A stretch of 64,000 nucleotides of DNA, taken from Candidatus Melainabacteria bacterium 17Bon1m (lineage in GTDB: Bacteria > Cyanobacteriota > Vampirovibrionia > Obscuribacterales > Obscuribacteraceae). Shown piece after piece: positions 11,632-39,969 of the stretch. Position numbers and translations under genes: made by a program. Every line of letters starts with the position of its first letter. Position 1 is the stretch's first letter. The notes under the pieces were generated by a model. It was given only the letters and a program-made list of their open reading frames with translations, made no database searches and was not told where the DNA came from. The stretch is from NCBI GenBank assembly GCA_032128875.1, contig JAVLKG010000004.1:1-64000 (forward strand). Reading direction: 5' to 3'.

Positions 11632-11711
11632 TCCGTTCCTCCAATCCTATTATGCGGGATTGGTCTATCTAAATTCTCTACGAATAGTTCAATTTTGGGG
11701 CAGCAATTCCT

Positions 11712-12080
11712 GGTTGATTTCAGTTGCAGACAAAAACAGCATGCATTCCCGCATACATTAGTTGCGATCTAAAATGGTCAATGATCTTGAAAGCGCCATA
11801 TCCAACGCTAATAAGGCGCCCAAAAAAGCTCGAAGTAATTCGCTCAAAATGAGCGCAAAGTTTCCCGGAACCGAAGTAGGATTGCTTCTTGATATTGATT
11901 TCGCAAACGAATTGCGATTTTTGCCACCTGTGCATCGATCCAGGCGAAGTAAATTGCTCATCTTTTAAAAGCGAATTGCGCAAAAGCCATGCAGCACAGC
12001 TATTCCCGGCAAAACGAATTACCTTGTTTCTCCTGCCTCCGTCCTACGGGCTCCACGAAATTCGCCACTTATGGGGGAGC
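11712..12080 (+). repeat. Dispersed ~360 bp non-coding element, copy A1 (oriT-like)
   Basis: Starts GGTTGATTTC; TTATGGGG begins 357 bp later; gap-free homology with 16853-17222; variant core TCTCCTGCC at 12029. Confidence 0.8.
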
Positions 12081-12158
12081 TGGCTAGAGCGTCAAATACT
12101 TAGCACAATTTGCTCGCCAATAATAAGAGGCGGGAAAATCCTCGTGCGAAAGAATGCT

Positions 12159-13070
12159 CTAGTCATTGCCTTCAGCGTTGCTCTTAAGATTTCGTGCAAT
12201 CCACTTACTTTTCCCATTCGAGGAAATCAACAAAGCGTCAAATTCCTGCCCAACCGTTGAGGAACTGGTCTTATGAGTTATTGCAATCATTTTGGATACA
12301 AGTTTCAAAGCTTTTCCTTCTGACCAATCAGCAGTGAAGTCAGCTTTACTTATTGCCTTTGCGACATCACTTTGCGCATTTTTGTTCATATAGTCTGACA
12401 ACGGCTGCGCCTCACCATAGACCCGGGCACCAAGAACATCTTCCCTCAAAGCCTTATTTCGATCGGCGGATTCGGCTCTATAAATTTCTATCTCCACTAC
12501 CTCTGCAGGCTTTCTTGTGATTGGGAAATGGACGATCAAAGTTGTTAAAACTGGTCGTTCAATTGTGTTTAGGAGTTCTAGGTCTCGGCCATTGGGGAGC
12601 AACTGAAGTGCTCTATTGCGTTCATTGAACAAAAGTTGCGCTAAGCTCACAACTTGAGCGTCGCTTAGGTTCTGTGCCTTGTCACGCTGCTGAGTTGAAA
12701 GAAAATTGCTTGCAGTCTTATTAGCGTCAAACAAAATGTCTGAGCTGTCATCAACTTTGTATCCCACTACGCGTGGTGCGCCATGAGACGCTATTGCGAA
12801 GGCCTCATTTGCCAGCAAGACTTTGTCAGCTGTTTGTACTCCGGATCTGGTCTTTGAGGTAAGCAGCCTATCAGCTGCGACGATGACACCTTTGTTGCAC
12901 GGCATTATGACAATGACAGTTCCCAGCAGAAGGTCTCCAGAATTCGTTGATGCAAGTGTGTGAGTGCAAGACATTGTGACCAAAGTGGTAAGGGCGGATA
13001 TCTTGGACAGGTTTTGTTGCTTGACCCAGAGGTTTAGTCTAACCGCTTTTGTCCACCCTAATTTAAACAC
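12159..13070 (-). CDS. Proteasome-beta/Ntn-hydrolase-like protein, possibly exported
   Basis: G|TVIVIMPCNKGVIVAADR pattern after a leader; C-terminal TVG; true start may lie downstream. Confidence 0.55.
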   Translation of the reverse strand: MFKLGWTKAVRLNLWVKQQNLSKISALTTLVTMSCTHTLASTNSGDLLLGTVIVIMPCNKGVIVAADRLLTSKTRSGVQTADKVLLANEAFAIASHGAPRVVGYKVDDSSDILFDANKTASNFLSTQQRDKAQNLSDAQVVSLAQLLFNERNRALQLLPNGRDLELLNTIERPVLTTLIVHFPITRKPAEVVEIEIYRAESADRNKALREDVLGARVYGEAQPLSDYMNKNAQSDVAKAISKADFTADWSEGKALKLVSKMIAITHKTSSSTVGQEFDALLISSNGKSKWIARNLKSNAEGND

Positions 13071-13106
13071 TTGCGAGGTCCTCCAAAAGCAGATCAGCGA
13101 CCTGTT

Positions 13107-15071
13107 TTAGTCCTGATCGCTAGCAGCGAGCACTGCTATGTGTCGCTTGTCGGGACGAAGGCACACAATCCCCAAATCCCACGCGATGTTATAAAACCAT
13201 TTTGATGTCGATGAGAGAGACCACCAACTGCTCTGTTTTACGGCATTAAGAACATCGTCGACGGTGCCGCTCGCTCCAACGCCGGTCAGCGCACCTAAGG
13301 ATTGCCAGGCGGCTAATCGTCCGTACGCGCCACCTTCGCCTCCGGAGTATGCACCGCCGCTCGACGCAACTCCAAACATCATCTCAAAAATCCTGTCTGC
13401 TGGAACGGGTTTGAATTCCACTTCGCGTGGCGTCATGCCAGCTATGCATTCAAGTTGCAGCTTCAACAATTGCTTTGTAGATAGGTCAGTCGGAGAAATT
13501 GCTGAAGAAATTTCGAACAGTTTTGACTCAGACTTTCCATTGGAACGTTTTTTCCATGACTGAACACATCTAACTGCGGCTTCCTCGTTGAACAGAATCG
13601 GCACCGCGGTGAATGGATTTTCTGGAGCAGTTCGTGAGGGCTGCTTGTCTAATGTTCCTTGTACCGAGGTGGACGGTAAGTGTTTGACGCTCCTGCCAGC
13701 GTTGTAGATGGGAAATGAAACTAAACCTTCAATGTCCGTTCTATGAAGCGGAAGCCAAGCAAGCGGGTTGTTCTCTTTCTTGAGTTTTTGCCAAAATGTA
13801 CATATCTGCTCATCCTTGTCGTAGTCAGCACCTCTTACTACTGATTCCTGAACGAGAGGAGTAATCACTTCTGGGAATTTGGCGTCTGCTAAGTGGCTGA
13901 TGATGAATGCTTTTGTTTCCTCTGATGTGTGCGTCGAAGCAATCATTGACGCTGCATGCAATGGGCTGCGTTTTGCTTCGAGTGTTAGCTCAATTCCAGC
14001 ATCGATCTGCTCTACTTTATTCGACTGACAGAGTTCATCGATAACGTCTACGACTGGCACAAAGTGAACGCCATTCGATGCTGGAGCTTCAGCACCTATT
14101 CTCTTCATGTCATAGTTGCGCGACTTTGCGATTTTCTTGACGTTATCCAATTTTGTCTTTTGCAAGAAATCGGTGGGCAGTGAAGGCGGCCTTTGCAGCG
14201 ATTCCACAGGAACTCCCAGTGGTGTACAAGCGAGCAGATGATGCTGCGACGGAAGTTCGACAGAGTATGAAACGAACAATCTCTTTCCTGAAATGCTTGC
14301 CATAGTACCGATTTTTTGGAATAGCATTTCAAACTCATTCAGGAATTTTCCTGGCATCTGCAAATAATAGCCACCATATTCTCTCGGATTTGCGGCGTTT
14401 AGCTGAGGCCAGTTTGCGGGCCATGTGACAGACTTCCTTCCTTCTCCTTCGTTTAGGGTGACATCAAAATATTCTGGGACCCATGGATGCGCGTCCTTGG
14501 GTTCGAAATAGTGTGTTTCATACCAGGCTCCGAGAGCGCTTTGCGGTATTTCACCACTACCATAGAGCGGACTCTGACACTTAACTGCAGGTAAAGAAGT
14601 TGAATATGATGCTGTTTTACCATTGCCAGTTTTCTGGATTGAAACAGGACCGTACATCGCTAGCTGACGCATAACTTTGCCGTCGTCAAAGATGATTTGG
14701 CTGTTGCGTTGATCTTCTGCTTCCGTAAAAGCAAAATTGGTCTTCACGTCAGGCAATTCAGCGACGATTTTTTCGAATGTCTGCCATGCTTCACCATCTA
14801 CGGTGCCAGTAATAAAACCACCAGATTGTTTCTTCCGATCTCTGTAAATGACTGTTCGATTTGAATACAAGGCAAAACGCACAGGAGTGCCTTCTTGCTC
14901 TGAGTAGTCTTCAGACTCAAAAAGCCCGAGTATTGGCTTTGGGTCATTGGACTTCTGGCAATTGGTAGTTAGTTCAGAACTTTGCACGATTGCTCCAACA
15001 TGCCAGCTTAAAATCAGGAGAATTAGGGTGTGTGTGATCTGCTTGTCGCGGCTTCGCTTTCTTATATGCAT
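13107..15071 (-). CDS. Exported protein with C-terminal DUF6183-like domain
   Basis: Signal-like N-terminus; GGAYSGGEGGAYGRLAAWQSL and WDLGIVCLRPD...VLAASDQD. Confidence 0.65.
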   Translation of the reverse strand: MHIRKRSRDKQITHTLILLILSWHVGAIVQSSELTTNCQKSNDPKPILGLFESEDYSEQEGTPVRFALYSNRTVIYRDRKKQSGGFITGTVDGEAWQTFEKIVAELPDVKTNFAFTEAEDQRNSQIIFDDGKVMRQLAMYGPVSIQKTGNGKTASYSTSLPAVKCQSPLYGSGEIPQSALGAWYETHYFEPKDAHPWVPEYFDVTLNEGEGRKSVTWPANWPQLNAANPREYGGYYLQMPGKFLNEFEMLFQKIGTMASISGKRLFVSYSVELPSQHHLLACTPLGVPVESLQRPPSLPTDFLQKTKLDNVKKIAKSRNYDMKRIGAEAPASNGVHFVPVVDVIDELCQSNKVEQIDAGIELTLEAKRSPLHAASMIASTHTSEETKAFIISHLADAKFPEVITPLVQESVVRGADYDKDEQICTFWQKLKKENNPLAWLPLHRTDIEGLVSFPIYNAGRSVKHLPSTSVQGTLDKQPSRTAPENPFTAVPILFNEEAAVRCVQSWKKRSNGKSESKLFEISSAISPTDLSTKQLLKLQLECIAGMTPREVEFKPVPADRIFEMMFGVASSGGAYSGGEGGAYGRLAAWQSLGALTGVGASGTVDDVLNAVKQSSWWSLSSTSKWFYNIAWDLGIVCLRPDKRHIAVLAASDQD

Positions 15072-15130
15072 CTTGATTGACTTGGCTGGATAATAGTTTC
15101 ATTGTTACTGTGCCTGCAAGGAGAAGAAGT

Positions 15131-15670
15131 GGGTGATTTCGGCAAGATTGAGACACATCACTGAAACTAGCATTCGTTAGTAGCCATCTACATTGCCGCA
15201 TGTTCGTCAACAGGACATATTGAGAAACGCTCAGGCGCGCAAAAATGGGTTAATGGGCGCCTGTGAAAATGCAGATGGCCGGATCAGATGTGGCTCATGA
15301 TGCGGATTAACAACCTGATTTTCGAGGGGAATGCCTTAAAGACTCCACTGGTTCTAGAGAATGGACATTGGGCACCCCTTTCCTTTTTTTTGAGAACCCC
15401 TTAAAGGGTACACAGGCGCATCGATACGGGAATTTGGCGCCTGTCGGCCTTTATCCTGCCTCCGGACCTTCGGGCTGAAGCAAAAATAGAGAATTATGGG
15501 GTACTTCCTCAGACATATAAGAATTCCCCCGCCCCCATCTGCCGCTCTGCCCGAATACCGTCGAACAAGGGTCCCGGAGTGAAGGTTGCCGGAGGCATCC
15601 GAAGGACTTGACCTTCGCTCCGGGTGTTCAGCGGTAGGCTGTTCGCCCGGCAGAATTGGCGGGGGCTACC
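15131..15670 (+). repeat. Dispersed non-coding element, copy B1 (oriT-like core plus 140 nt branched hairpin)
   Basis: GGGTGATTTC to TTATGGGG is 363 bp; TATCCTGCC at 15452; hairpin 15526-15665; homologous to 32812-33364. Confidence 0.85.
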
Positions 15671-15734
15671 GTAATTGCCCTGCTCCGGCCATGCACATAT
15701 TTTGAGTGGTAAACGATAAGACTGAAATCTTGTC

Positions 15735-16703
15735 CTACTTGCCGAATTTCCAAGCATTTAGCAGAATTCGACTTTCGCCAGAGAATCTCCCATCAGTGAA
15801 GATAAGTCCAGCCTGAGCGTCTAAATGCAAGTACCAGAAATGTCCAGGCAGTTTGAATTGGTCTACCTCTTTTAGTTTTTCACGCACTGAGAGTATGCAC
15901 ACATGAGTTGGATGATAGAGAGGGCAGGTACCGCAGAGTTTTTCTTTCACCACCCAAAGAAATTCGCCGCTGCTGTCGATGGCAAGGCGTGAGAATAGAA
16001 ATTCAAGATTGAATGTCTGCACATTGGAAGGGTCTTTCACAGATACTGAGCGCAGAATGTTTGTGGACTTACCAAATGCGTAGAAAAAATTTCCATTCAA
16101 TCGCTCTGGTGTTGCTTCCGACAACCACAGCGTTTCCGTCTTGACACACATCGCTGCGTCGTCGAAAAGTAATCCGGTTAGTATGTTCTCTCGCTTTCCC
16201 GAAAGCACATTCAATCTCCAAACACTTCCATCAACTCCGCAACACGCTAGGAGACTATCCGGAAAGATGTCCGGAAATAACGGTTCCCCTCGTCCAAAGT
16301 TGAAGCGTTGGACCTTAGATGTATTCAAGTCGTACAGTATAACTGCATCTTGTACCCCGCCTTTCATCGCCAATATATTGTCGAAACGCAAGGGTGAACC
16401 CATTAACTTTGGAACGCGAGTTTCCCACCGTTTTATTTCGGATAAGGATTTCGACGATAGCAAGAAGATTTTGCGATCAGTATTAGCGATAACCTCAGAG
16501 AAGTCTTTCGAAAAAGCAAGATCGTAAACGTGAGCTCTAGTGAGATAACTGGACCGCTCTTCCCCGGAGTCAATGTCCAATCTTGTAATTTTCATGCCTG
16601 CATACATTTGTGAGCCATTGAGAAAATAGACCGAACCTAATTCCGGTACAACGCGGGCGGTTCCACTTCCCTTGAATTCTTTGGTCCAAAGCGGAGTAGC
16701 CAT
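15735..16703 (-). CDS. Beta-rich (propeller-like) hypothetical protein, paralog 3
   Basis: VPELGSVYFLNGSQMYAGMKITRLD and LTRAHVYDLAFS nearly identical to paralog 2. Confidence 0.75.
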   Translation of the reverse strand: MATPLWTKEFKGSGTARVVPELGSVYFLNGSQMYAGMKITRLDIDSGEERSSYLTRAHVYDLAFSKDFSEVIANTDRKIFLLSSKSLSEIKRWETRVPKLMGSPLRFDNILAMKGGVQDAVILYDLNTSKVQRFNFGRGEPLFPDIFPDSLLACCGVDGSVWRLNVLSGKRENILTGLLFDDAAMCVKTETLWLSEATPERLNGNFFYAFGKSTNILRSVSVKDPSNVQTFNLEFLFSRLAIDSSGEFLWVVKEKLCGTCPLYHPTHVCILSVREKLKEVDQFKLPGHFWYLHLDAQAGLIFTDGRFSGESRILLNAWKFGK

Positions 16704-16852
16704 AGGAATGTAGTCCTCACTAAAACCGAACAGATCTACGAAATTGCACGCAGGGATCTCTAACTCCTATTAGTCCACGACAATCCTCTTCTTGAAACAA
16801 CTATCTGGCACCAGTAACTCGGATCGCTCTGCGATTTGAGATACAAATTTCA

Positions 16853-17222
16853 GGTTGATTTCGGCAAAGTTGAAAGAGGCGACTGGAACTCGCATTCATT
16901 AGTGAATATCCAAACAGGTCAACGGTTCTCAAAGCGCCATATCTGTTGGAAGTCAGGCGCTGAAAAACGTGCGAGGTAATGCGCGGAAGCTATGCGAAAA
17001 ATTTCGCTTAGCAGCAACCAGACTGTATTGAAACTCTGTTTTCGCAAACGAATTGCGATTTTTGCCAACTGTGCACCGATCTGGGCGAAGTAAATTGCGC
17101 TGCTTCAAAAAGCGAATTGCGCAAAAGCTATGCAGCACATGACTTTCCGTCAAGACGAATCACCCACTTTATCCTGCCTTCGTCCTGCGGACAAAGGCAA
17201 AATAGACAATTATGGGGTATCC
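16853..17222 (+). repeat. Dispersed ~360 bp non-coding element, copy A2 (oriT-like)
   Basis: GGTTGATTTC to TTATGGGG is 357 bp; TATCCTGCC at 17170. Confidence 0.8.
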
Positions 17223-17343
17223 TATGTCCACGCAGCTCAGTATCCCAGTTCAACAAGGAGCGCAAACTCTTCTTCCGAGCCGCCCTAAGAAAGTTTTGCG
17301 TTGTAAAAATGACTCAAGGAAACCTCTTTACTTTCACAACACT

Positions 17344-18234
17344 ATGAAAATTTTGTCGATTGATGGTGGAGCCCCCCTAATCCCGTACATTTTTTTGAAT
17401 GAGTTGGAGAAAAGAACTGGCAAGTCAATTCCGGAGCTTTTTCAATTGGTGGTCACAGTATCCACTGGAGCCTTCCCAGCCTTCTTCTTTACGCATCCAT
17501 CTCTGCGAAGCTCTCTTTCAGAAGTACAGCAACTTCAGATTTTGAGAGCCAGTTTTGCCAACAGAAATGCATTTAAAAATGAAGTAGAGAAAAACTTCTC
17601 AACGTATAGACTTAGAGATGTAGGTACGGACCTAGTGGTAGCTTGCTACGACGCGATGTCCCGAGACGAATTTCTCTTTCAAAGTAGAATTGCAAAAAAG
17701 CGAAGTGGATTTGACTACACTGTTAATCAGGTACTAAAGGCCTCGTGCGCGAAGCCGAGTGTTCTTGATCCATTTAAATTGAAACGAACTGACGGAACAG
17801 AGAGTTTGCTTCTGGACGGTGGAGTTTTGGGCAGCAATCCCGCAAACATCGCAAGTCGAGAAGCACGGTCGGTTTATGCCGAAGATAATCCGGTTATTGT
17901 TTCCGTTGGTACCGGATCAGTTGCGCGCGACACCTCAATGGTGAACCTCGAAATCAAAGATCCGCAATCTCTGATGCTTTTTACGCAGGCTGCTTCTGGA
18001 ACAGTAGGGAGTTTCGGTCCGCCAGAGTTTACCGCACTTGGTGCAACCACAGATGTAACTCTTTCAATTTTTCCGAATTCGAAATTTCGTTTTGACACTG
18101 AGTTGACATCACATGGTAAATCATTCTGGTACACGGACGACATTTTCGAAATGCAAAAAAAAGCGGCCAGAGCACTAATTGAACAACAAAGCGTCCGCTT
18201 AGATGAACTTTGTAAGAGTCTTGTCTCTGGATAG
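17344..18234 (+). CDS. Degenerate patatin-like phospholipase
   Basis: MKILSIDGGAP (GGGxRG loop lost), TVSTG, LLDGG, VSVGTG; ATG at 17344 preferred over 17212. Confidence 0.8.
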   Translation: MKILSIDGGAPLIPYIFLNELEKRTGKSIPELFQLVVTVSTGAFPAFFFTHPSLRSSLSEVQQLQILRASFANRNAFKNEVEKNFSTYRLRDVGTDLVVACYDAMSRDEFLFQSRIAKKRSGFDYTVNQVLKASCAKPSVLDPFKLKRTDGTESLLLDGGVLGSNPANIASREARSVYAEDNPVIVSVGTGSVARDTSMVNLEIKDPQSLMLFTQAASGTVGSFGPPEFTALGATTDVTLSIFPNSKFRFDTELTSHGKSFWYTDDIFEMQKKAARALIEQQSVRLDELCKSLVSG

Positions 18235-18239
18235 TAGTC

Positions 18240-19265
18240 ATGCCTGTTAGAAGAATCCTTTCGATAGACGGTGGCGGAGTGAGAGGAATTATTCCGGCAT
18301 TGATCCTTGCTTACATCGAGCAGAGAGCGGCACTTCCCATAACGACCTTGTTCGATACCATAGCCGGAACCTCTACGGGGGGAATAATCGCATTATGTCT
18401 CACCAAACCTAACCCTGATGGTTCACCATGTTATTCAGCTGCTCAGTGCGCTCAACTTTACGAGAAATCTGGACAAAAGATTTTTCCACCCTTTGATTTA
18501 GCACTACGAAAATTCCTTGCAATTCGTGCGTTTAAACCATTTGCATATTGTCCATCAGGTCTCGAAACTGTTGTTGCGGACTATCTGGGTGATACCTTAC
18601 TTAGTCAAGCAAGTTCTGACCTCTTAATTTACAGTGCTAGAGTTTTTCCTCCAGGGATTTTTACTTTTAAACGGTTCGAATCATTAGAGAATGAGGATGC
18701 TAACTTTGCGATGAAAGATATTGCACGTGCAACTTCTGCCGCATCTACATACTTTCCACCTGCCACCATCAAGAATAGATCAAATGCACATGAGTTTAAT
18801 CTGATCGATGGTGGAACTTTAGTCAACAATCCTGCGCTTCGTGCCTATTATGACTCCAAAACTCGATTTCCTGATCATGATGTGTTCGTTTTATCAGTGG
18901 GAACAGGAGCGGTTACACATAAAAATCAAATGAAGGCGCAGGACGGATTCACGTTGGCACCGCTCCTCGCAGCACGAAAATTGATATCGTTCCAAATGGA
19001 CGGGACAAGCAAGCAAGCGCACAGAGACCTTATGTCCATACTTCCAATCCAGCTGCATCAAAACGGCAACCAAGAACACAGACGATATTATCGAATCCAA
19101 TGTCGATTGGAGAGTGACGCGGAAGATTTAGATAACTCAGATCCGAAAAATTTGAAAAAACTTCGCAACTTGGCACAAGAGATGATTGATGACAGTCGCG
19201 ATGTTCTCGATTTTATCGCAATGAAATTGGTCGCTCTCCATTTAGCGCAACAGAACCATGAGTAA
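18240..19265 (+). CDS. Patatin-like phospholipase with intact catalytic motifs
   Basis: DGGGVRG, GTSTG, ATSAA, DGG..NNP, LSVGTG. Confidence 0.92.
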   Translation: MPVRRILSIDGGGVRGIIPALILAYIEQRAALPITTLFDTIAGTSTGGIIALCLTKPNPDGSPCYSAAQCAQLYEKSGQKIFPPFDLALRKFLAIRAFKPFAYCPSGLETVVADYLGDTLLSQASSDLLIYSARVFPPGIFTFKRFESLENEDANFAMKDIARATSAASTYFPPATIKNRSNAHEFNLIDGGTLVNNPALRAYYDSKTRFPDHDVFVLSVGTGAVTHKNQMKAQDGFTLAPLLAARKLISFQMDGTSKQAHRDLMSILPIQLHQNGNQEHRRYYRIQCRLESDAEDLDNSDPKNLKKLRNLAQEMIDDSRDVLDFIAMKLVALHLAQQNHE

Positions 19266-22200
19266 CGATGACGCTAGCGCCACATATCGAGGATATCGGA
19301 GGCAAGCCATTTATGCCTTGTTTCGCCTCTTTAGTGACAGTCTGCCGGACGGATGTGTAATCCAACCTGAGGGGACTGAGGACCTCGCAATTTTTGACAA
19401 TGCAGGTAAGCTAATTGAGATAGTTCAGGTAAAGGATCATACTGATAAACTTGCAGCCTCTAGTTTTAAGCCTTCGTTTTACGAAAGGGTATCGCCCTAT
19501 TGTGCACCTGATTCTTCAACAATTGTTCGCATAGCTACCTTCGGTCCAATTGGGCCAGATCTTCAAGGTGCTATATCCGGTGACCAGGTTGCTCGGTCTC
19601 GTGTTCTGAAAACGATTACCAACTATCTAAGCGAAAGGCACGCAACTGCGAATTTAGGCAAGGCTCAGAAGCGGCCTGATGTGCAAGCCAGTGAAATCAT
19701 TGCTCATATCGATGTGACGCCGGTAGCTGAGGTAGACCTTGTAAATACGATTCTTTCCACTCTTTCTAATACAGTCACAGGAGTCAGTCCGAAACAATCA
19801 TTTGAGTTTTTGATGTGGTGGCTGCTCACAGCGTCAGAAGCAAAATTGAAAATCAGTCGAAACAAAGCCATCGCTAAGATTCAGAGTATCGGGAAATTTT
19901 TGTCTCAACGAGCAGCTTATTATGACGAGTGGTACTCCACAATTGTGCCGATTGTACCCTCTGATGATTCAACGAGACGCGTTAATAATTTTGAAAATGA
20001 GTTTTATCGCGGAGGGCGAGTTAGTTTTGATCATATAGAGCTGGGACTAGATGTTCCACGGAACCGCTTCTTGAAAGATATCCATGACGCATTTAAGGAT
20101 AACAGTGTAGTTGTTATCCATAGTGCGTCTGGGCAAGGAAAGACTACTCTTTCATACAGATACGCAAAGGATTTCGCCGCTTCTGATTTTCGACTTGAGG
20201 TTTTGACTTCATCAGACCTTAGGCAAGCGAGAAGAATCGCACAGGCGTTGATAGGCCATGCAGAAGCAGTGGAAGTACCTACTTTGATATTTTTCGATGT
20301 AAGGCCGGGAGACATTCTATGGCTTGATGTTGTTAGAGAACTTGTATCAGTAGGTGGAATTAGAGTCCTAGTTTCGGTTCGTGAAGAGGATTGGAAGCGC
20401 ACTCGCATAAGCGCCGCCGACTTTTCTTTTGCTGAAGTCTCACTATCTTTGGAACAGGAAGAGGCAAAGGCTATTTATGATCGTTTGACCAAACGAGTTG
20501 CAAATGATCGGCATCTAGACTTTGAAGATGCTTGGAGTCAGTTTGGTGTCCGAAAGACTCTTTTTGAATTCGTGTACTTCATTACTCAAGAAGAATCTCT
20601 AGCGACAAGGATTTCCTCTCAAATCAGGGCGCTTCAAGATGAGGTAACAGTCGGGAAGAGAAGTAAAGGCGAGGTTGACTTGCTTCACCTCGTCGCAGTG
20701 GCGTCAGCTTATGAAGCTAGATTAGATCTGGCGAAACTTGTGGCTCACTGTAATCTGCCTTCTCCACAAAGAACGATTGAGAGATTTGACAATGAATACC
20801 TCATTCGTGTGTCTGTTGATGGAGCTAATGTCGAAGGGTATCATTCAATTCGTAGTGAAATAATTGCGAACAACTTAACCGACAAAGTAATCAGCCCATG
20901 GTCCAATGTTGCATCACAAGTCTTGCCGCTCATCTTAGAAGCTGATTTAAGCGGTTTCTTGCTTTGTGCATTCTCTCGACAACCTGAAGCGGCTAAAGTT
21001 TTAGTTCCTGCGTTGACGCATTTTCAACCATGCACTTGGATAGGTACTCTAAGTGTTGTTACTTCTCTAATGTGGAATGGGCTTAAGCTGTACGCAGAAC
21101 ACAACTCTTCATTACTGGATGAAATCTACGAGCAAGTGGACTCACGCTGGCATTTGACTTTGGACTGGGAATTGGGCCAAGCTCTCGGTAAAGACGGACT
21201 TAAGTTTTACGAGTCTATTGCAGAGGTCTCGGCTAGATTCAAAGGCGCTGTGGAGTATTCTCAAAAGGCTAAAGAGAGGCAGTCTGAAAAATGCAATGTA
21301 TTCGCAGATATGCAAACCTGGTTGGAAGGCTGCTCAAGGCTGCCTTCTGCTCCGAGTAACGCTCAAGATTTCACCGCAATGTCAGAGGTATTCTTTTGGC
21401 TTGGGCATTTAAAGATTAGGTCTACATTACAGGAAGCCATATCGGTAGACATCATTGAGTGTGCGCGTAACAAACTCTCTCTCTATTCATTTGGCGAATT
21501 TATTCGAGGCATTCGGGAATCCGCCAATGATGTTTATGGCGCCTGGCTTAAAGCTAACCGTACGGATTTTATTCACGAGTTAAGAAAGGAATCCGGAGTT
21601 CTCGCTCTGGACGAAACCACGGATGCAATCGTCGCTCATTTCATTATCGACTTCGACCGGCAATTTTCCTTACTTAGTTCTCGTGGAGTTTCGCCGAATA
21701 GTGCCAAAGCTACCATCCATGATTTAACGATTGAAAGAGTTACATTATTGAGCAACCTCTTTTCCAATAAAAAGCAATACGGTGCTGTTGGCTATGGTCA
21801 CAGAATTTCGCTTTTCCCACATTCTTGGGATGAAGCAAATAAGCCTGGTGTCTTATCGCAAAACTTGCATCCAAAATGGCCGTTGCTCTTTAATGCTTTA
21901 GCACGAGGGCGCGTGGAACTCAAATACCGCCCTGCAAATTGGGAACTGTACTTCCAACTACTTCAATTGTTGCGAGAAAATGTATTGAATGCATTCACTG
22001 ATTTGCGGCAATCGATAATGCCTAAGAACTTGGCACTGAACGTCGGCAAATTTCCACTTGCAAAAATTGAGAGTTGGGAGCAGTGCCGAAAGGAAGTAGG
22101 AAAGCAATTGCTGTTACCTAAAGTGTCAGTTGATGAGTGGGGATATGTTACTGAGACCGCTAGAGAAAACAATGAAGATCCTAGACTAGAGCGTTTCTCC

Positions 22201-23535
22201 GGTCTGCACCGCTTCATGCCCGTGCAAAAAGCCGTCGCTGAATACTCAAGATGTATCAGCAACTTCATGTCTCAGGCGAAGGACTCCTTGGTACTTGTTC
22301 CTCTGCTACGAAATGCCAAATCGGACTTAGAAAGAAGCAAGATTATTTCAAATGCATTGGAATATGACATTCATGTCGAGTCAATCAAATTGTCTGTGGT
22401 CAACGGATTTGATGCCTGCCTAGCAATTGAACAATTGCATACGGCAACAAAATATGTTTTTGGAAGTCAGCAAATGCCAGGAGCAGACTTAGATTTCTGT
22501 GAGCGTGAACGGAGAGAATTTACTACTTCAATGACTGCATGGAGTGTTTTCACAGATGCTGATATCAGCAATCAAATTGCAGAAAACTCTAGAAAGAAAA
22601 ACAAGCTACAGTGGAGAATTGCTCACAATGAAGTTGAGTTAGATGATTTACTGATTCCTACAAAGCGCCGTTTGAAAAACGCATTGCAGTCTCTTCGAAA
22701 GGAAGGTATCGATGCAAGTGTGCTTTCGGAAAGGCTTCTTTGGGATGACAAGTCTGCTCTGTGGATTACAGTCGACACTGTTCATCCAATTGCATCGCTA
22801 ATTGCTGCGAAAACCGTCTGGCACAAACTGGTCGAAGCATTTACGCCAGATCGCACTAAACTAATTCGCATGAGAGCCATAGATCTTTCATGGCAATCGA
22901 TAATTTTGATTCCGTTAGTCAAAGGAAAAAGTTTAGAGCGACATGCAATGTCGCGTTTCAAGTGTGTAACGTACTCAGAGCCAGGCGATTACGATCAAAA
23001 TCTATGGCAGTTGTTTCCAGAACGAGTGCCGGACGAGACCTGGCGTCAAATAGGACTGGACCAGTGGGAGTTGCCTCCAAAACGGAACACGTTTGAACAA
23101 CTAAAGGAAGTTTATAGTTCTTTAGTTCTGCATGTTGAACACATGGCAGACCTTTATCGTCTGTCTTCAAGAGAAGATGGGCTGGATGACTTTGGAACAT
23201 CCATTCTTCAAGACTACCTGAACGTTGAGCAAGCGCGTATTCAACCATTGGTTCAAGAGGTTTACGACATTTGGAATTCCTTGCTGAGAGATTTTTCTTC
23301 GCTAGACGAGGAAATACTTGAGAATAGTCCCAATATGTGTATGTGCATACTGGTTTTGGAGCGTCTGAAGGAGGCAATCTTACCTACGCTTGATTTTCAT
23401 GAACAATGTAGACTTTCGCTCGAAGAAATTAGCAACTGGTGTCAAAGGTTGACCGCAGGTCTAAATGATCTTGGGTTAGCATACTATTTGTGGATATCTG
23501 ATTCTCTCGGGTTTTCTGCGCCTCCAGAATACTAG
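19258..23535 (+). CDS. Nuclease-STAND NTPase-sensor protein (Avs-like), 1425 aa
   Basis: N-terminal ASATYRGY..Q...EGTED...QVK (Cap4/PD-(D/E)xK-like); Walker A SASGQGKT; Walker B LIFFD; long helical C-terminus. Confidence 0.75.
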   Translation: MSNDDASATYRGYRRQAIYALFRLFSDSLPDGCVIQPEGTEDLAIFDNAGKLIEIVQVKDHTDKLAASSFKPSFYERVSPYCAPDSSTIVRIATFGPIGPDLQGAISGDQVARSRVLKTITNYLSERHATANLGKAQKRPDVQASEIIAHIDVTPVAEVDLVNTILSTLSNTVTGVSPKQSFEFLMWWLLTASEAKLKISRNKAIAKIQSIGKFLSQRAAYYDEWYSTIVPIVPSDDSTRRVNNFENEFYRGGRVSFDHIELGLDVPRNRFLKDIHDAFKDNSVVVIHSASGQGKTTLSYRYAKDFAASDFRLEVLTSSDLRQARRIAQALIGHAEAVEVPTLIFFDVRPGDILWLDVVRELVSVGGIRVLVSVREEDWKRTRISAADFSFAEVSLSLEQEEAKAIYDRLTKRVANDRHLDFEDAWSQFGVRKTLFEFVYFITQEESLATRISSQIRALQDEVTVGKRSKGEVDLLHLVAVASAYEARLDLAKLVAHCNLPSPQRTIERFDNEYLIRVSVDGANVEGYHSIRSEIIANNLTDKVISPWSNVASQVLPLILEADLSGFLLCAFSRQPEAAKVLVPALTHFQPCTWIGTLSVVTSLMWNGLKLYAEHNSSLLDEIYEQVDSRWHLTLDWELGQALGKDGLKFYESIAEVSARFKGAVEYSQKAKERQSEKCNVFADMQTWLEGCSRLPSAPSNAQDFTAMSEVFFWLGHLKIRSTLQEAISVDIIECARNKLSLYSFGEFIRGIRESANDVYGAWLKANRTDFIHELRKESGVLALDETTDAIVAHFIIDFDRQFSLLSSRGVSPNSAKATIHDLTIERVTLLSNLFSNKKQYGAVGYGHRISLFPHSWDEANKPGVLSQNLHPKWPLLFNALARGRVELKYRPANWELYFQLLQLLRENVLNAFTDLRQSIMPKNLALNVGKFPLAKIESWEQCRKEVGKQLLLPKVSVDEWGYVTETARENNEDPRLERFSGLHRFMPVQKAVAEYSRCISNFMSQAKDSLVLVPLLRNAKSDLERSKIISNALEYDIHVESIKLSVVNGFDACLAIEQLHTATKYVFGSQQMPGADLDFCERERREFTTSMTAWSVFTDADISNQIAENSRKKNKLQWRIAHNEVELDDLLIPTKRRLKNALQSLRKEGIDASVLSERLLWDDKSALWITVDTVHPIASLIAAKTVWHKLVEAFTPDRTKLIRMRAIDLSWQSIILIPLVKGKSLERHAMSRFKCVTYSEPGDYDQNLWQLFPERVPDETWRQIGLDQWELPPKRNTFEQLKEVYSSLVLHVEHMADLYRLSSREDGLDDFGTSILQDYLNVEQARIQPLVQEVYDIWNSLLRDFSSLDEEILENSPNMCMCILVLERLKEAILPTLDFHEQCRLSLEEISNWCQRLTAGLNDLGLAYYLWISDSLGFSAPPEY

Positions 23536-23538
23536 CGT

Positions 23539-24366
23539 CTATGACCTAAGCTTTTGCATCAAGGAATCCCGGGCGGCTTCCATAAAGTGAGTTGCCACCC
23601 CGCTACGTGCTGGAATGTATCCATATGAATTTGTGTTGGGGGCCAAATACCCTCGAGTGTCGTATGCAACTTCATTTAGGAACGCAATCAGCGAGCCGAT
23701 CAAGTATCCCGCATACAATCCAAACTTTACCCAATCGCCTTCCATGAATGGTGTGTATTTAAACTCAGAGTCAGTGGGCAGTACATCCTTGAACAGTCGA
23801 AACATGATCCCATATTGATATTTTACCGAGACGTCTACCCTATGATGGATAATTCTATCCCTGGTATCTACAAGAATGTCGTACCATTCAGCTCCTCGAA
23901 TTTGATGAAGTATCGGAACTCCGAGAAGTCGGCGAGCACGGTCTTCCTTTTTGCACCAATTGCGTAATTGAGTGAAACTGTCTGGAGACTGTCCTGCTCC
24001 CCCAGTTAGTCTTAAGAGAAGTGCGATGCTATCACAAAGAGATCTCAGTTCAACATGAAGGGAATGGATGTCGGCTTGAATATATGCCTTCCAATCGAGT
24101 GCATTCAAGAAGCCGTCGTACCAAAATTCAGTAATCTTGGCAATTTTTTCAATGATGGAAAACACAATGTCCAGTTCTGACATGATTGAGTAGACTCTTC
24201 TAAATACACGTTGATCAAACTCCAATTCACCCCCTGATCCAGTGGAAATGAATTCTAGTGATCTTCCTGCTAGGGCGCAGAACGGACCATTATAAAAAGG
24301 CTTGCCAGAAGTAGGAACGACATCTATAAGGCGTGCGAGCACAAGTCTTTCAAGCCCTATAATCAA
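23539..24366 (-). CDS. HEPN-like putative RNase
   Basis: All-helical ORF with Rx4H motif RDRIIH. Confidence 0.6.
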   Translation of the reverse strand: MIIGLERLVLARLIDVVPTSGKPFYNGPFCALAGRSLEFISTGSGGELEFDQRVFRRVYSIMSELDIVFSIIEKIAKITEFWYDGFLNALDWKAYIQADIHSLHVELRSLCDSIALLLRLTGGAGQSPDSFTQLRNWCKKEDRARRLLGVPILHQIRGAEWYDILVDTRDRIIHHRVDVSVKYQYGIMFRLFKDVLPTDSEFKYTPFMEGDWVKFGLYAGYLIGSLIAFLNEVAYDTRGYLAPNTNSYGYIPARSGVATHFMEAARDSLMQKLRS

Positions 24367-33364: not shown

Positions 33365-33429
33365 TTTCGGATTTTGCGCCTGAGTTATGATGCATTTGGT
33401 GGGAAGCAAGGCGATTGGCTTTAGTGAGT

Positions 33430-35667
33430 ATGTTTCTAAAATCGTTAGTTCTGTCGCTTCTTGTTGCGTCTGCCAGTACTTCTGCGAGCGCGACTGATGC
33501 GAGTAACCTGCCATCTGAGCAGGCGACAGATTCACGAATCAAAGCGACGGCAAGAAGTGTTAACGACCTTTCATTGCGAATTATGCAGAGGCTAGTTTCA
33601 GAGAAAACTCCGCGCACGATTGTAATCTCTCCAATTGGTTTGGCGAACTGCTTGAATGCTGTTGCTCTCGGTGCGGGAGGAGATACTCGGAGCGAACTGC
33701 GAAAGGTGTTTTTGAATTCAGAGCTAAATGAGCAAGACTTTGGAACGCTTCAAAAATTTGTTTTGACACCGACAAATGGTGTTGATGTCTCATCTGCAAG
33801 TGCCATGGTGACAGCGAGGGATGTAAAGCTTAAGCCATTGTTTCTAAAGAGCTTTGAAAGCAGTTATGGGGGAACAGCTATCTCCGCTTCAAGCGCCGAG
33901 AATATTAACCAGCGACTCAACGATTGGATTCGAGTCAAAGCTCACGGCATGTTCGATGGTGCCTATCCCCCTATGAAGCCTCACGAGATTAGACTTCTGA
34001 ATGCACTCTACTTTAATGGCAAATGGATTGACCAGTTTGAAGGTAAGGCAACGAAGATCGAGAAGTTTTTTGAGACGGAAAGCTCTCCAATCTCGGTTGA
34101 GATGATGCACAAATCGCTTGAAATGGCGATGTTCTATGGAGAATCCGATGGTAGCCAAATTGTGCGGATGCCGTATGGACCTCCGCACTCAAACCCATTA
34201 ATGCCATTTGCAATGTATGTGGTTCTGCCAAGAAAAGGGCAGTCGCCAGAACAGCTGCTAAGCATGATCTCAGTAGAAAAACTTGAGAGCCAAATCTCTT
34301 CAATGCGTCCACGTGTTGGCGAGCTTTCATTACCGCGTTTTTCACTGCTTGCGAAAAACTCATTTAAGGAACCATTGGCGCAACTTGGCATACGACAAGC
34401 CTTTTCCGCTCCTAAAGCAAACTTTTCTGAAATTACTGACAGTAAACCTCTGTGGCTAGGTGATCTAAACCAAAACATCAGCCTCCTAGTAAACGAACAA
34501 GGAACAGAAGCTGCTGTTTTAACAGATGCGGTCTATTTCCTCGGACCAAATCCATCAAAGCGCTTTGAAATGAATGTGAATCGACCGTTCGTTTTTTTCG
34601 TAAGGGATGATCGAAGTGGAACAATCGTACTGCTTGGAGTTGTACATAAACCACTGATGGAACGCGCTGTCACGGAAGCGGCAGAAACGGAGTTGTTGCG
34701 AAATCTAGATGAGGACGAATCGAAGTGGGCTGTTCTCACTGGTGACGAAAAAAAGGAAGCACACTGGAAACTTGAGAGAGAATTGCGTGGGGCTCGCGAT
34801 TATTTCGTTTCCAAAAGCGACTTTCGGCAAGCAATCCAAATATCTAATCGGTTGATGCACATAGAAAAGCCACATTGCTCTGCACTTTATCAACACGCAT
34901 TCATCCAACTTGCGCTTGGAAATACGGCTGCCGCTGAGTCCACATTTAAAGACATTTTGAAACTCTATGCAGAGGCAAAGGGTAGCTTCGAAAAGACGCG
35001 ACCAGAATGGCTTGAGGCATTTGATAAATACGATGCGATGCTATCGAGCAAGAATCCGAAGGACCCTGAGCGCGCCCCAGTGTTGGCAGCTAAGGAGAGC
35101 TTCTTGATTCAGGACGTAAAGGACGATGTGTTCGTGAAGGAAGGGGTTGTTGGTGCATGGAGGCGTGATCTCTCAACCATCGGAGTTCCAGATGAAGTCA
35201 GCAAAATTACTTTCGATCAATTCATTGAGCGTTTTGACAAGGACACTGCATTGCTTTCAAAAGACATTGTTTCTTTACGTCTGGCGCTGAAGGAAGATAA
35301 GAGCGCGCTTCAATGGAAACCTAGTATGTGTCAGGGCGATCGCATATCCCGTCTTGGGCAATCTCAATCCGCTTTGGCACATTTCTACAGTGAACATGGA
35401 AGTGCCCATACAGCAATTCAGTTGTTTGAACTTTGTGTAATCAATAACATTGAAGATGATTATGTTGAAGGTGTGGAACGCGATCTATCAGACTTGATTG
35501 AAATTCTGAATGCGAACGGCTTCAAAAGTGAAGCGAAGATGGTTTCGCAGCGCCAGTCCCAATTGATGCCAATTGTGCATGAGTACTTGGAACTTCATCT
35601 TAAATGGGAAGAGCTCAAAAAAGAAGAGCAAAGGCGATGGCATGAAACTCCGCACACCAGCAATTAG
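33430..35667 (+). CDS. Secreted serpin with C-terminal TPR-like extension
   Basis: Signal peptide; VISP, LLNALYFNGKW, VNEQGTEAA hinge, VNRPFVFFVRD; about 335 aa helical tail. Confidence 0.88.
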   Translation: MFLKSLVLSLLVASASTSASATDASNLPSEQATDSRIKATARSVNDLSLRIMQRLVSEKTPRTIVISPIGLANCLNAVALGAGGDTRSELRKVFLNSELNEQDFGTLQKFVLTPTNGVDVSSASAMVTARDVKLKPLFLKSFESSYGGTAISASSAENINQRLNDWIRVKAHGMFDGAYPPMKPHEIRLLNALYFNGKWIDQFEGKATKIEKFFETESSPISVEMMHKSLEMAMFYGESDGSQIVRMPYGPPHSNPLMPFAMYVVLPRKGQSPEQLLSMISVEKLESQISSMRPRVGELSLPRFSLLAKNSFKEPLAQLGIRQAFSAPKANFSEITDSKPLWLGDLNQNISLLVNEQGTEAAVLTDAVYFLGPNPSKRFEMNVNRPFVFFVRDDRSGTIVLLGVVHKPLMERAVTEAAETELLRNLDEDESKWAVLTGDEKKEAHWKLERELRGARDYFVSKSDFRQAIQISNRLMHIEKPHCSALYQHAFIQLALGNTAAAESTFKDILKLYAEAKGSFEKTRPEWLEAFDKYDAMLSSKNPKDPERAPVLAAKESFLIQDVKDDVFVKEGVVGAWRRDLSTIGVPDEVSKITFDQFIERFDKDTALLSKDIVSLRLALKEDKSALQWKPSMCQGDRISRLGQSQSALAHFYSEHGSAHTAIQLFELCVINNIEDDYVEGVERDLSDLIEILNANGFKSEAKMVSQRQSQLMPIVHEYLELHLKWEELKKEEQRRWHETPHTSN

Positions 35668-37479: not shown

Positions 37480-38550
37480 CTATGTGATTTCACTTGAATC
37501 CTGATCATTGCCCCAGAAAAGGAAATATTTCGGCTCGTATGATTCCTGAAAGAGCTTGTTGATACCATCTGCGAACGGTCCCGATGCTTGAAGTCGAGGG
37601 GTATTCCGCTTCCTCCAACTCGGGTTTTTTGCAAGTAGTTCTCTTGCCCAGTCGAACTCATTTGTTGGTGAGTACAGATAGCGGTTTGAATGATAAAGGT
37701 GCATCCGATTGAAGTAGTCCACACCCTCCTCTCTAAGGCGCATGCACTTTCCGTCGATTTTTTCAAATTCTCGAAAGAAAGATCTTTCGAGGAGGGATAA
37801 GTGAACATTCGGCGACAAGTTAATCATCAATTGAGATCCCTTGGAGAGAATGCCTTGCCCTCCATTCTCATCTTCTGCTCGCGGTACAAACAAGACAGGT
37901 GTGTCGCAGGTGATAAGTTTCCTGCTGTTGGTTGCACTGAACATCCAAACAAATTTATGGAGTTCAGGACCCGCAGCAATTCCTGAATTGAACGTAGACA
38001 AAACATGATGGCCTGCTTTAGCCTCTTTGCTGAGCTGTACATCAAAATCTTGTTCATCAGTGATCTCAACACCATTAGCTTGCAGCTCAGCAATGTACTG
38101 TGCTTTGAGCGATGCTCTAGCAAATGCGATTGATTCTTCCTTCTTGTCTGGAGTCCTTAGATACTGAACGGCTAGAAAGAAACCGAGTTTGATGCGCTCT
38201 TTTTTGTGTAACAGTCGCTCAGACGTGTATGGCAAAGTCTTTTTTCCAATAAATGCATTGACTTTACTTATGAGCATGTCGATAATCGGCTGTCCAAGGT
38301 CTTCTACTTCCTTAAAAGCTCTTTCGCTAATCTGATAGTTCTCTGGCTTACTGGGATCTCTGTCGACGCTTTTCATGTCGTAGAAATACTGAACACACGC
38401 AGTCTTGCTGATAGCGTTTTCAAAACTTCGATCATCCCATTTGTCAAAGACAAAAATTTTCCCCGGTTTGCTTGAAAATCTTTCCAAGCTTTTTTGAGGA
38501 ACAAAGTGTTGCTTTTTTGCTGTCTGTGGCAAAGGAGAATTTTGAAGCAT
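37480..38550 (-). CDS. DUF4238-domain protein
   Basis: KKQHFVPQ...F, FLAVQYLRTP, LITCDTPV. Confidence 0.8.
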   Translation of the reverse strand: MLQNSPLPQTAKKQHFVPQKSLERFSSKPGKIFVFDKWDDRSFENAISKTACVQYFYDMKSVDRDPSKPENYQISERAFKEVEDLGQPIIDMLISKVNAFIGKKTLPYTSERLLHKKERIKLGFFLAVQYLRTPDKKEESIAFARASLKAQYIAELQANGVEITDEQDFDVQLSKEAKAGHHVLSTFNSGIAAGPELHKFVWMFSATNSRKLITCDTPVLFVPRAEDENGGQGILSKGSQLMINLSPNVHLSLLERSFFREFEKIDGKCMRLREEGVDYFNRMHLYHSNRYLYSPTNEFDWARELLAKNPSWRKRNTPRLQASGPFADGINKLFQESYEPKYFLFWGNDQDSSEIT

Positions 38551-38556
38551 TTGAGA

Positions 38557-39612
38557 CTACATCGGTATGCCGTTAAGGTTATTGAAAAGGCTATAGTTTG
38601 ATGCTGTGTCGAGGACAAACCGCCCTTGAGCAAGCTGGGTCATTTTTCTCTCCATCGTGTCAAATTGATGCCCAATTCCAAACGATCCTCGGTTCCCTGT
38701 GCGAAATGGATATGGTCCGATGAGTACTTCATAACGGCAGTGTGCAAACAACGAAAGTTCAACCTTAATCTTATTCAGCTTCTCGAACACGCGCAAAAGA
38801 TGGAAGGGGATATAGTCCCTTCCTTCATATCCAGGCACTGTAAATCCATGTGGGGTAACAATGACCGGAGACTTTCCTTGAGCACGTATAGCGAAGTCCC
38901 TTATCTTGTCGAATGCTTCTTCATACAAAATGTCTCTAAATCCAGACTCTATCGCGCAGAAAGAAAAGTAATTGAAGGCGATTTTCGCTATTACTCTCTG
39001 CAAGTCGCGATCTATTCTTGAGTCGAACTCTATCTCAAGATTGCCATTGTAATTTAGTGTTTCACTATCACTTGCATTGAACTTCCTGTCGATGCCCCGC
39101 TTCCTAAGTTCACCTATGACTTCGCCGATTCCATCCTCTCCCTGTCCAAAGGCAGTAATTGAAAACTCACGTGAGCCAAGCCATTTGAACCTATTGCTAA
39201 AGCCTTTGTCATCCCTTAGTCCTTCAAGGAAAATTATTTGCTGCTTACCGTCCTTCCTTTCAAAGATAACCTGAGGAAGTAGTTGAACTTCGCCAGTGAC
39301 CGGATTCACTGTAGGAAAAACTCTTCCCAGCAGCGTTTGCACGCCAGTGAGTTTATTTGTCATTTTCATGCGCGTCTTACGAAGGCAAACTGATCGATCT
39401 TGTCGGACTCGAAACAGTGCTGCGATGAATCCTTCAATGCTGTCTTCCTTGAAGACAGTCTCCAACTTGCTGAAGATTCTGTTGCAGACATCGCAAACGT
39501 CTCTAAGAATCAATGACTCCCCCGAGAACGTTCCAAGAAACTGCGGGATTACATGCTCTCTGCCGTTAAAAGGGACATCTGTTTTTAAACAATATATGCA
39601 ACGCATAATCAA
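38557..39612 (-). CDS. HNH endonuclease-domain protein
   Basis: CIYC...EHVIPQFLG...VCDVCN; RVIAKIAFNY. Confidence 0.8.
   Translation of the reverse strand: MIMRCIYCLKTDVPFNGREHVIPQFLGTFSGESLILRDVCDVCNRIFSKLETVFKEDSIEGFIAALFRVRQDRSVCLRKTRMKMTNKLTGVQTLLGRVFPTVNPVTGEVQLLPQVIFERKDGKQQIIFLEGLRDDKGFSNRFKWLGSREFSITAFGQGEDGIGEVIGELRKRGIDRKFNASDSETLNYNGNLEIEFDSRIDRDLQRVIAKIAFNYFSFCAIESGFRDILYEEAFDKIRDFAIRAQGKSPVIVTPHGFTVPGYEGRDYIPFHLLRVFEKLNKIKVELSLFAHCRYEVLIGPYPFRTGNRGSFGIGHQFDTMERKMTQLAQGRFVLDTASNYSLFNNLNGIPM

Positions 39613-39897: not shown

Positions 39898-39969
<72 letters not shown>

Follow-up and report, generated by a model that had tools for sequence, protein, structure and literature searches.

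Do genes packed as tightly as those of a single operon also act as a single system? The question is raised by three adjacent genes in the genome of Candidatus Melainabacteria bacterium 17Bon1m, a member of the Obscuribacterales whose assembly comprises 7.55 Mb in 35 contigs and is 93% complete. The genes lie within a stretch of 64,000 nucleotides (contig JAVLKG010000004.1, positions 1 to 64,000 of the forward strand; hereafter the window) and encode, in order, a degenerate patatin (gene A), an intact patatin (gene B) and a 1425-residue protein that combines a nuclease domain, an NTPase of the STAND class (signal transduction ATPases with numerous domains) and a predicted sensor (gene C). An earlier note on this DNA, made from the letters alone, proposed a new anti-phage system in which one NLR-like sensor drives both a DNase and a membrane-lytic output.

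The answer that we favour, with moderate confidence, is that the operon holds two modules: a self-sufficient Avs-like protein, C, and a pseudo-patatin/patatin pair, A-B. The locus is best read as a place where A-B was joined to C only in the island of this one species, the packing reflecting co-transcription of two units and no obligate three-part machine. C is self-contained and stands without patatins in the other genomes searched.

Arrangement of the three genes

The features of the trio are as follows.

17344..18234, + strand: gene A, 296 aa, candidate patatin-fold pseudoenzyme
18240..19265, + strand: gene B, 341 aa, intact patatin-like phospholipase, CapV-like
19258..19905, + strand: gene C residues 1-216, Cap4/DUF4297/LmuA-type PD-(D/E)xK nuclease domain, from PADLOC and structure matches
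19909..20925, + strand: gene C residues 218-556, STAND NTPase module with Walker A motif SASGQGKT
20926..23535, + strand: gene C residues 557-1425 and stop codon, predicted sensor of ~870 residues

The listing of open reading frames (ORFs) places all three genes on the plus strand, co-directional, with C as a whole extending over 19258-23535. The ORF of gene A is open from 17212, though 17344 is the likelier start because its nearest relative, P0153 (297 aa), begins opposite residue 45 of the long ORF. At the first junction the sequence reads TAG at 18232-18234, then five bases (TAGTC), then the ATG of gene B at 18240. The ATG of gene C at 19258 lies inside the final codons of B (ATGAGTAA), giving an overlap of 8 bp. 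The tight coupling described in the earlier note, a 5-bp gap and then an 8-bp overlap, is thus seen directly in the sequence, and every motif that it quoted for A, B and C was found in the translations.

This arrangement is no assembly artefact, since contigs of a lake-water DNA run from another study (X10) span 17983-18374 and 18993-19374 with 0 differences, bridging both gene junctions. Eleven public runs contain half or more of the words sampled from 17100-23600, and 20 public runs from nine studies contain some part of this interval. One run labelled as RNA (X2) yields a single 17,670-base contig over 15579-27000, with genes on both strands and flat depth; this contig cannot show transcription or co-transcription of the trio. 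Promoter and terminator scans gave counts no higher than chance, and no terminator-like site beyond chance expectation lies between the trio genes. Composition is uniform across the three genes (G + C fraction, GC, of 0.436-0.443; GC at third codon positions, GC3, of 0.37-0.40), and both measures are lower than in core genes of the window, five of which have GC3 of 0.47-0.62.

Nuclease, NTPase and predicted sensor in a single protein

Gene C follows the effector-STAND-sensor plan of Avs/AVAST proteins, all in one protein. It carries the nuclease motif EGTEDL...EIVQVK and the Walker A motif SASGQGKT, and residues E38, D42, Q57, K59 and A290-K295 are invariant across 58 aligned members of its family. 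Two features expected of an Avs protein in the broad sense, a tripartite architecture within a single protein and conserved Walker A and catalytic residues, are found here. The PADLOC model for LmuA, PDLC03848, matches C residues 2-277 (E 6.5e-11), and a second PADLOC model, PDC-S73, gives a weak match to the P-loop (E 0.0091). The PADLOC comparison that the earlier note had proposed was run against PADLOC-DB 2.0.0, with its models for Avs1-5, and returned no Avs match at E<=0.1, so there is no full match to a described Avs family in that database. Families named after 2023 comprise Avs7-21 and the 589 clades (684 sensor clusters) of bioRxiv 10.64898/2026.01.04.697583. Pfam nSTAND_NTPase5 (PF25199) scores 25.2 bits on gene C against a cut-off of 34, with nSTAND3 as the second match; PF25199.2 is the precomputed domain of protein C and of most of its 26 near-full-length relatives, and one family member (L060) scores 33.7 bits against the same cut-off.

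The structural comparisons began from an AlphaFold2 model of C residues 1-560, built on 58 family sequences and reaching a predicted local distance difference test score (pLDDT) of 90. In a Foldseek search of the PDB, the N-terminal half of C had as its top match SeAvs3 (8dgc_A, E 2.7e-11), followed by SAMD9, HerA-DUF4297, EfAvs5, LmuA and Avs4. Alignment with VIA-align paired model residues 7-216 with HerA-DUF4297 (9c1m_G; Z 16.2, root-mean-square deviation (rmsd) 3.5, 181 aligned residues), and the nuclease domain also with LmuA (9hr5_A; Z 13.9, rmsd 4.2, 196 aligned). Residues 218-556 of the model aligned with SAMD9 (9zjs_A; Z 19.3, rmsd 4.0, 292 aligned) and further with NLRC4 (Z 14.5), EfAvs5 (Z 14.3) and Apaf-1 (Z 13.7). 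Human SAMD9 outranks the bacterial Avs structures as a structural match of this NTPase module (19909-20925). A similarity between SAMD9 and Avs5 has already been reported; in gene C it is seen within a protein that bears a Cap4 nuclease.

The remaining part of gene C, modelled as residues 496-1425 (pLDDT 87.8, predicted template modelling score 0.82), ends in a C-terminal four-helix bundle. The earlier note had described a ~900-aa helical tail; the tail is indeed long and mostly helical, though the model also contains two beta-sheet subdomains. Searched whole, the sensor has no solved relative: Foldseek against the PDB finds nothing at E<=0.001 (best E 0.022), VIA-align over 48,161 representative chains finds only generic four-helix bundles (Z<=9.8, at model residues 778-925, in the last 150), and the ESM Atlas gives no usable match. 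The beta subdomains were not folded alone, and no claim of a new fold is made for them. At the sequence level, phmmer and a family profile of C run against PDB sequences return P-loop noise only and no solved Avs protein. Identity to the gene C of the window ranges across the family from 17 to 51% in the sensor half and from 28 to 66% in the N-terminal half; the sensor is the faster-evolving part. The view of C as an Avs-like effector-STAND-sensor protein, already put forward in the earlier note, is upheld by the models and by the structure matches of its nuclease and NTPase parts.

Relatives of gene C and their neighbours

A search of 5.8 billion proteins returned the 26 near-full-length relatives of C (26-57% identity), mostly from planctomycetes, and a scan of species-representative genomes returned 141 relatives, of which the best 80 loci were fetched. 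These 80 come from more than 15 phyla. They include Planctomycetota, Cyanobacteriota, a metagenome-assembled genome (MAG) of the Obscuribacterales, Chloroflexota, Desulfobacterota, Nitrospirota, Acidobacteriota, Verrucomicrobiota, Gamma- and Zetaproteobacteria, Bacillota, Myxococcota, Bacteroidota, Campylobacterota, Spirochaetota and others. One full-length member (L042, ~28% identity) comes from a contig assigned to a Thorarchaeota MAG, and represents either a transfer into an archaeon or a binning error.

Patatins are missing from the surroundings of these genes. Within ~8 kb of the C relatives, phmmer with A and B (ORFs >=80 aa, E<=1e-3) finds a patatin in 0 of the 80 loci, and profile hidden Markov models (HMMs) of the A and B families also give 0 of 80 at E<=1e-2; as a positive control, the same HMMs matched 80 of 80 control patatin loci. 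Nor is any other neighbour conserved. When 870 neighbouring ORFs within 4 kb of the relatives were clustered, the largest cluster was present in three loci, and the window ORFs that flank the trio (8198-30634) have no match (E<=1e-3) in the 80 loci. The earlier note had itself named a general lack of patatin neighbours among STAND homologues as the finding that would tell against its proposal, and the neighbourhoods show just this. Whole genomes of the closest relatives fetched (L002 and L008 at 56% identity, L001 at 52%) contain no A-type match at E<=1e-5, and a further genome scanned for A-type genes (L013) contains ordinary patatins only.

Upstream sequence of 1 kb or more is available for 65 loci, and in 18 of them a tightly coupled, co-directional ORF ends no more than 60 bp from the start of the C relative; the same holds for one further locus with a shorter flank. 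A Pfam scan sorted these 19 ORFs into the following kinds.

Nuclease kind (n=5): Mrr_cat (L001), NERD (L011), REase-ARP (L041), YqaJ (L066), MBL (L050)
Regulator (n=2): WYL, HTH
Repeat protein (n=2): TPR, HEAT
Oxidoreductase (n=1): FMO-like
Restriction-modification fragment (n=1): HsdM_N
Phosphatase (n=1): Y_phosphatase3, weak match
No significant Pfam match (n=7)

The effector end of the protein varies as well. In one member (L050:5994-10082), the N terminus is a trypsin-like protease with the motif AGHC in place of the nuclease, and a gene of the MBL (metallo-beta-lactamase) fold lies 18 bp upstream. Three cyanobacterial members (L036:7575-10073, L060:7457-11579 and L073:7572-11576) have no nuclease domain; ahead of each lies a small helical ORF (133-146 aa) that has no significant Pfam match and could be a separate effector or adaptor. 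Some neighbours of C relatives in other genomes are restriction-modification or nuclease genes. The family thus has the modular effectors, and the defence-type genes nearby, that are customary among Avs proteins. No partner is fixed, and its members are often tightly coupled to unrelated genes upstream.

An intact patatin and its degenerate neighbour

Gene B is the intact patatin that the earlier note took it for. All three catalytic motifs are present (GGGVRG, GTSTG and DGG), which is what the active-patatin motif test (PF01734) looks for, and the protein scores 71 bits with Pfam Patatin. It matches the PADLOC model for CBASS phospholipase effectors (PDLC00758) at E 9.6e-57, and scores 155.1 bits with NCBIfam CBASS_lipase (NF041079, the CapV equivalog), short of the cut-off, which is 200; among solved structures, plant patatin-17 is its closest relative and the CapV structures rank behind it. 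Over 6,000 relatives of B were found, with P0035 at 59% identity and the rest at <=43%. The motif WGxxxW, nearly invariant in the wider B family, is missing from B and P0035 alone. Neither a second patatin nor a C-like STAND gene occurs in any of 80 metagenome loci fetched around B relatives (33-46% identity), many of them short, and the recurrent neighbours there are Vut_1, LssY_C and trypsin/CvpA proteins. Pfam Patatin matches number 18 in the genome as a whole, an unusually rich set for a bacterium.

Gene A, which shares 26% identity with B, is a degenerate patatin, again as first described. DGGA--PLIP replaces GGGxRG, the loop being shortened to GGA--P with no Arg; the elbow is altered, TVSTG replacing GxSxG; and the Ser and the Asp of DGG are kept. 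The alignment also places a ~30-residue deletion in the lid region. The full motif set of active patatins (GGGxRG, GxSxG, DG[A/G]) is therefore lacking. In CapV, the Arg of GGGxRG holds the lipid phosphate, according to PMC12480259. Gene A scores 29.3 bits with Pfam Patatin, just above the cut-off of 27.7, matches the PADLOC phospholipase effector model at E 4.5e-21, and reaches 35.5 bits with NCBIfam CBASS_lipase (NF041079; cut-off 200).

Close relatives of gene A are rare. A word-indexed search found only four weak relatives, and an exhaustive HMMER search returned 1,824 patatins at E<=1e-3 with only two at E<=1e-30, P0153 (47% identity) and P0154 (36%). The next full-length matches are P0157 (HIA53762.1; 31%, from a Melainabacteria MAG) and P0162 (HEY9755939.1; 28%, from an Oculatellaceae MAG). 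The A type is read as a rare pseudoenzyme family because all five members share the shortened Gly loop and P0162 has additionally lost both Ser and Asp. A search of 107 genomes of the order turned up no further A-type gene, neither in the 12 congeneric species nor in the remaining 94 genomes; the four best matches there are ordinary patatins that stand singly and have no STAND neighbour. Only ordinary patatins were found in a sample of the class (401 genomes), in the order around L013 (57 genomes) and in a sample of the phylum (401 genomes, query P0001), where the best non-self match has E 9.8e-13. Gene C was not found in the 12 congeneric species either; the congener searches covered A and C, with B left out. 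A, B and C are accessory genes.

Several observations link A with B. P0153, the nearest relative of A, and P0035, the nearest relative of B, each occur on one Logan contig only, with a length of 12,148 bases in both cases. The two contigs are almost certainly one and the same, and the A-B pair therefore recurs at least once. Prediction of the complex between B and A residues 45-340 gave scores of 0.82, 0.82 and 0.79, whereas the best of three controls reached 0.01, with partner pLDDT >=81 and at least 60% agreement in contacts between runs; 58 of 80 solved complexes attain the mark applied to such predictions, as do 2 of 110 mismatched pairs. On the strength of these models, A and B are a predicted heterodimer. 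The predicted interface is the region used by CapV and iPLA2-beta for their homodimers, and in CapV this interface includes the Trp residue W255 (PMC12480259). We infer that WGxxxW holds W255; the loss of the motif would then fit a switch from homo- to heterodimer. In the open-access literature, neither a patatin pseudoenzyme partner nor a Cap4-STAND gene with a patatin pair in front of it was found described.

The surrounding region

GC in the window is 0.43-0.48 up to ~40 kb and 0.48-0.55 beyond. The first 40 kb contain IS21, IS481 and tyrosine integrase genes, with a tRNA-Thr gene (39898-39969) at the end. The island context claimed for the trio is plausible in view of this low GC, these mobile-element genes and the tRNA. 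One intergenic feature adjoins the trio.

17040..17220, + strand: intergenic repeat of ~180 bp, directly upstream of gene A, ending at the ATG of 17212

A second copy of the repeat lies at ~11896-12075, with 84% identity over 154 bp. The repeat contains three boxes with AATTGCG, and both copies end at TTATGGGG; between them lies a 5-kb block of four genes on the minus strand, one encoding DUF6183. In two public runs (X7 and X11), contig breaks fall at 17040 and 17139, and the loose ends match the flank of the second copy. The repeat may be a shared promoter/operator cassette or may mark cassette ends. It is also what the earlier note had called an oriT-like element, a label that finds no support: this is a two-copy intergenic repeat, and no relaxase or type IV secretion system family turned up among the window ORFs scanned. 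An Rfam search of 11700-17400 gave no match.

Other features of the window deserve brief mention. Several X2 contigs break or diverge at ~15367-15670, around an 82-aa ORF (15509-15757), and depth is higher there, which suggests a further repeated or variable element. An IS21 element stands at the start of the window and of the contig (IstB at 51-830, an IstA-like gene at 827-2308) and probably explains the assembly break at that point. A serpin-domain protein of 750 aa is encoded at 33415-35667. At 37480-39612, next to the tRNA-Thr gene, a DUF4238 protein lies beside an HNH_5 protein, and neither has a PADLOC model match.

One system or two

If the two-module reading is correct, gene C would work by itself. 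Its sensor of ~870 residues would bind a phage-made protein, autoinhibition would be released and the ATP-bound STAND NTPase would oligomerise; the oligomer would assemble the Cap4/LmuA-type PD-(D/E)xK domains into an active DNase, which would destroy DNA and abort the infection. This mechanism, and the antiviral role with it, is modelled on the characterised Avs3 and Avs7, and SeAvs3 and SeAvs7 are described in these terms in bioRxiv 10.64898/2026.01.04.697583. A-B would be a heterodimer of a competent patatin phospholipase, B, and a pseudoenzyme, A, which, without the phosphate/oxyanion loop, probably regulates or scaffolds its partner.

A number of points count against this reading. The 5-bp gap and 8-bp overlap are the packing of a true operon, and the shared composition of the trio together with the absence of A and C from congeners fits a joint arrival and possibly a joint function. 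The A:B score may echo the solved CapV and iPLA2 homodimers rather than binding. A C-like gene may also stand beside the P0153/P0035 pair. The neighbour test is weaker for B relatives than for C relatives, at least 1.5 kb being available upstream in 49 of the 80 B loci and downstream in 42. The defence role of the C family is argued by analogy, and the ten ORFs neighbouring the trio gave no PADLOC match. Finally, Avs systems with separate effector genes exist, Avs2-trypsin-MBL being an example (bioRxiv 10.64898/2026.08.25.746987), and the C-family member L050 has this very form.

Some of these points belong equally to an unlikely alternative, in which all three genes form one system: a triggered C would fire its own nuclease and also license the A-B lipase, and DNA and membrane would be attacked together. 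A-B would then fill a swappable upstream slot for a second effector, held elsewhere by Mrr, NERD, REase or MBL proteins, and the lipase would be gated by a dead paralogue, not by a cyclic nucleotide, in what would be a dual-output Avs system. Besides the packing, the common composition and the lack of A and C in the 12 congeners, such a system would account for the varied effector-like genes tightly upstream in the C family (Mrr_cat, NERD, REase-ARP, YqaJ and MBL), among which the protease and MBL of L050 are a known functional Avs pairing, and for the comparable identity at which all three genes have their nearest relatives (A 47%, B 59%, C 57%). Yet tight upstream genes in 18 of 65 loci are not above ordinary operon frequency and belong to no common family, C already holds a complete effector domain, and A and B have no adaptor or extra domain with which to dock on it. 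Genomes with C at 52-56% identity do without any A-type gene. With a patatin in 0 of 80 C loci and a C-like gene in 0 of 80 B loci, the earlier proposal that one NLR-like sensor drives both DNase and lipase outputs is not borne out.

It is also conceivable, if rather improbable, that A-B works as a conflict module of its own and is simply placed next to C in a mobile island. The pseudo-patatin could restrain the lipase until a trigger arrives, or the pair could be an orphan effector of the CBASS type (cyclic oligonucleotide-based antiphage signalling system), answering a nucleotide signal made elsewhere. We know of no defence phenotype for such a pair. The PADLOC CBASS phospholipase effector matches, strong for B (E 9.6e-57) and weaker for A, agree with such a role, as do the predicted heterodimer and the mobile-element genes nearby, and CapV offers a parallel, being inactive as dimers or tetramers until a ligand binds at the protomer interfaces (PMC12480259). 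A nucleotide signal would call for a CD-NTase, and the earlier note was right that none is visible: none is among the window ORFs scanned, and Pfam SMODS has 0 matches in the whole 93% complete genome. Moreover, B falls under the CBASS_lipase cut-off with a plant patatin, not CapV, as its best solved relative, and its relatives at 33-46% identity adjoin housekeeping-type genes (Vut_1, LssY_C, trypsin/CvpA), not defence genes. Quite the least probable view, one that we consider very doubtful, is that A-B is an ordinary pair of lipid-metabolism enzymes with no conflict role, placed beside C by chance. The 18 Pfam Patatin matches of the genome, and the stand-alone, non-defence contexts of most B relatives, would be expected of such enzymes; an accessory pair whose A member is missing from congeners, set in a low-GC island with insertion sequence and integrase genes and with B overlapping the start of a defence-type gene, would not.

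The locus is of wider interest. If C is an active receptor of the Avs type, such receptors gain a widespread family, seen in more than 15 phyla and one archaeal MAG, with a sensor fold unlike any solved. The A-B pair would be the first patatin lipase partnered with a patatin pseudoenzyme, and bears on how CapV-like lipases might be silenced without a nucleotide signal. Should the two modules communicate, the locus would show how bacterial NLR-like sensors gain a second, membrane-directed output; should they not, it would warn that a start-stop overlap in an island is no proof of a single system.

Comparison with known systems

Gene B resembles CapV of Vibrio cholerae and Acinetobacter (PDB 9KH6, 8ZR9) in fold and in its GGGxRG, GxSxG and DG[A/G] motifs, and the interface region of CapV dimers and tetramers, as given in PMC12480259, is the same as that predicted for A:B. 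Unlike in CapV, the partner of B is a degenerate paralogue and not a second copy of B, and WGxxxW is missing. CBASS was rejected as an identity for the locus, given that neither the operon nor the genome has a CD-NTase (SMODS) and that B and A both fall below the CapV equivalog cut-off.

The nuclease domain of gene C is shared with LmuA (E 6.5e-11, Z 13.9) and HerA-DUF4297 (Z 16.2). In C, however, this nuclease is fused to a STAND NTPase, and no LmuB/SMC or HerA partner is found among the ten neighbouring ORFs. Lamassu was rejected for C on the same ground, there being no LmuB/SMC-type partner beside the LmuA-like domain (ten ORFs, PADLOC). The only SMC (structural maintenance of chromosomes) gene of the window, full-length and hinge-bearing, is at 54840-58370, 31 kb from the trio.

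For the NTPase module, the best structural matches are the SAMD9 and Avs5-type NTPases (PDB 9ZJS, 9JAP, 9NC9), and nSTAND3, the second Pfam match of C, is the module of Avs5. The effector of C is a Cap4-type nuclease and not the SIR2 of Avs5-type proteins, and its sensor has no match to 9ZJS, 9JAP or 9NC9. Closest in overall plan are Avs3 and Avs7 (SeAvs3, PDB 8DGC), which likewise combine a Cap4-type PD-(D/E)xK nuclease, a STAND NTPase and a large sensor in a single gene. C differs from them in having no sequence-level match to a solved Avs protein (phmmer, family profile) and no PADLOC Avs match, and, as far as Foldseek and VIA-align can tell, its sensor is not the terminase sensor fold of Avs3.

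A precedent for an upstream gene that serves an Avs sensor is Avs2-trypsin-MBL, and L050 is exactly of this kind, an MBL gene followed by a trypsin-STAND gene. The accessory gene of Avs2-trypsin-MBL is conserved with its sensor, whereas the patatin pair accompanies gene C in this genome only.

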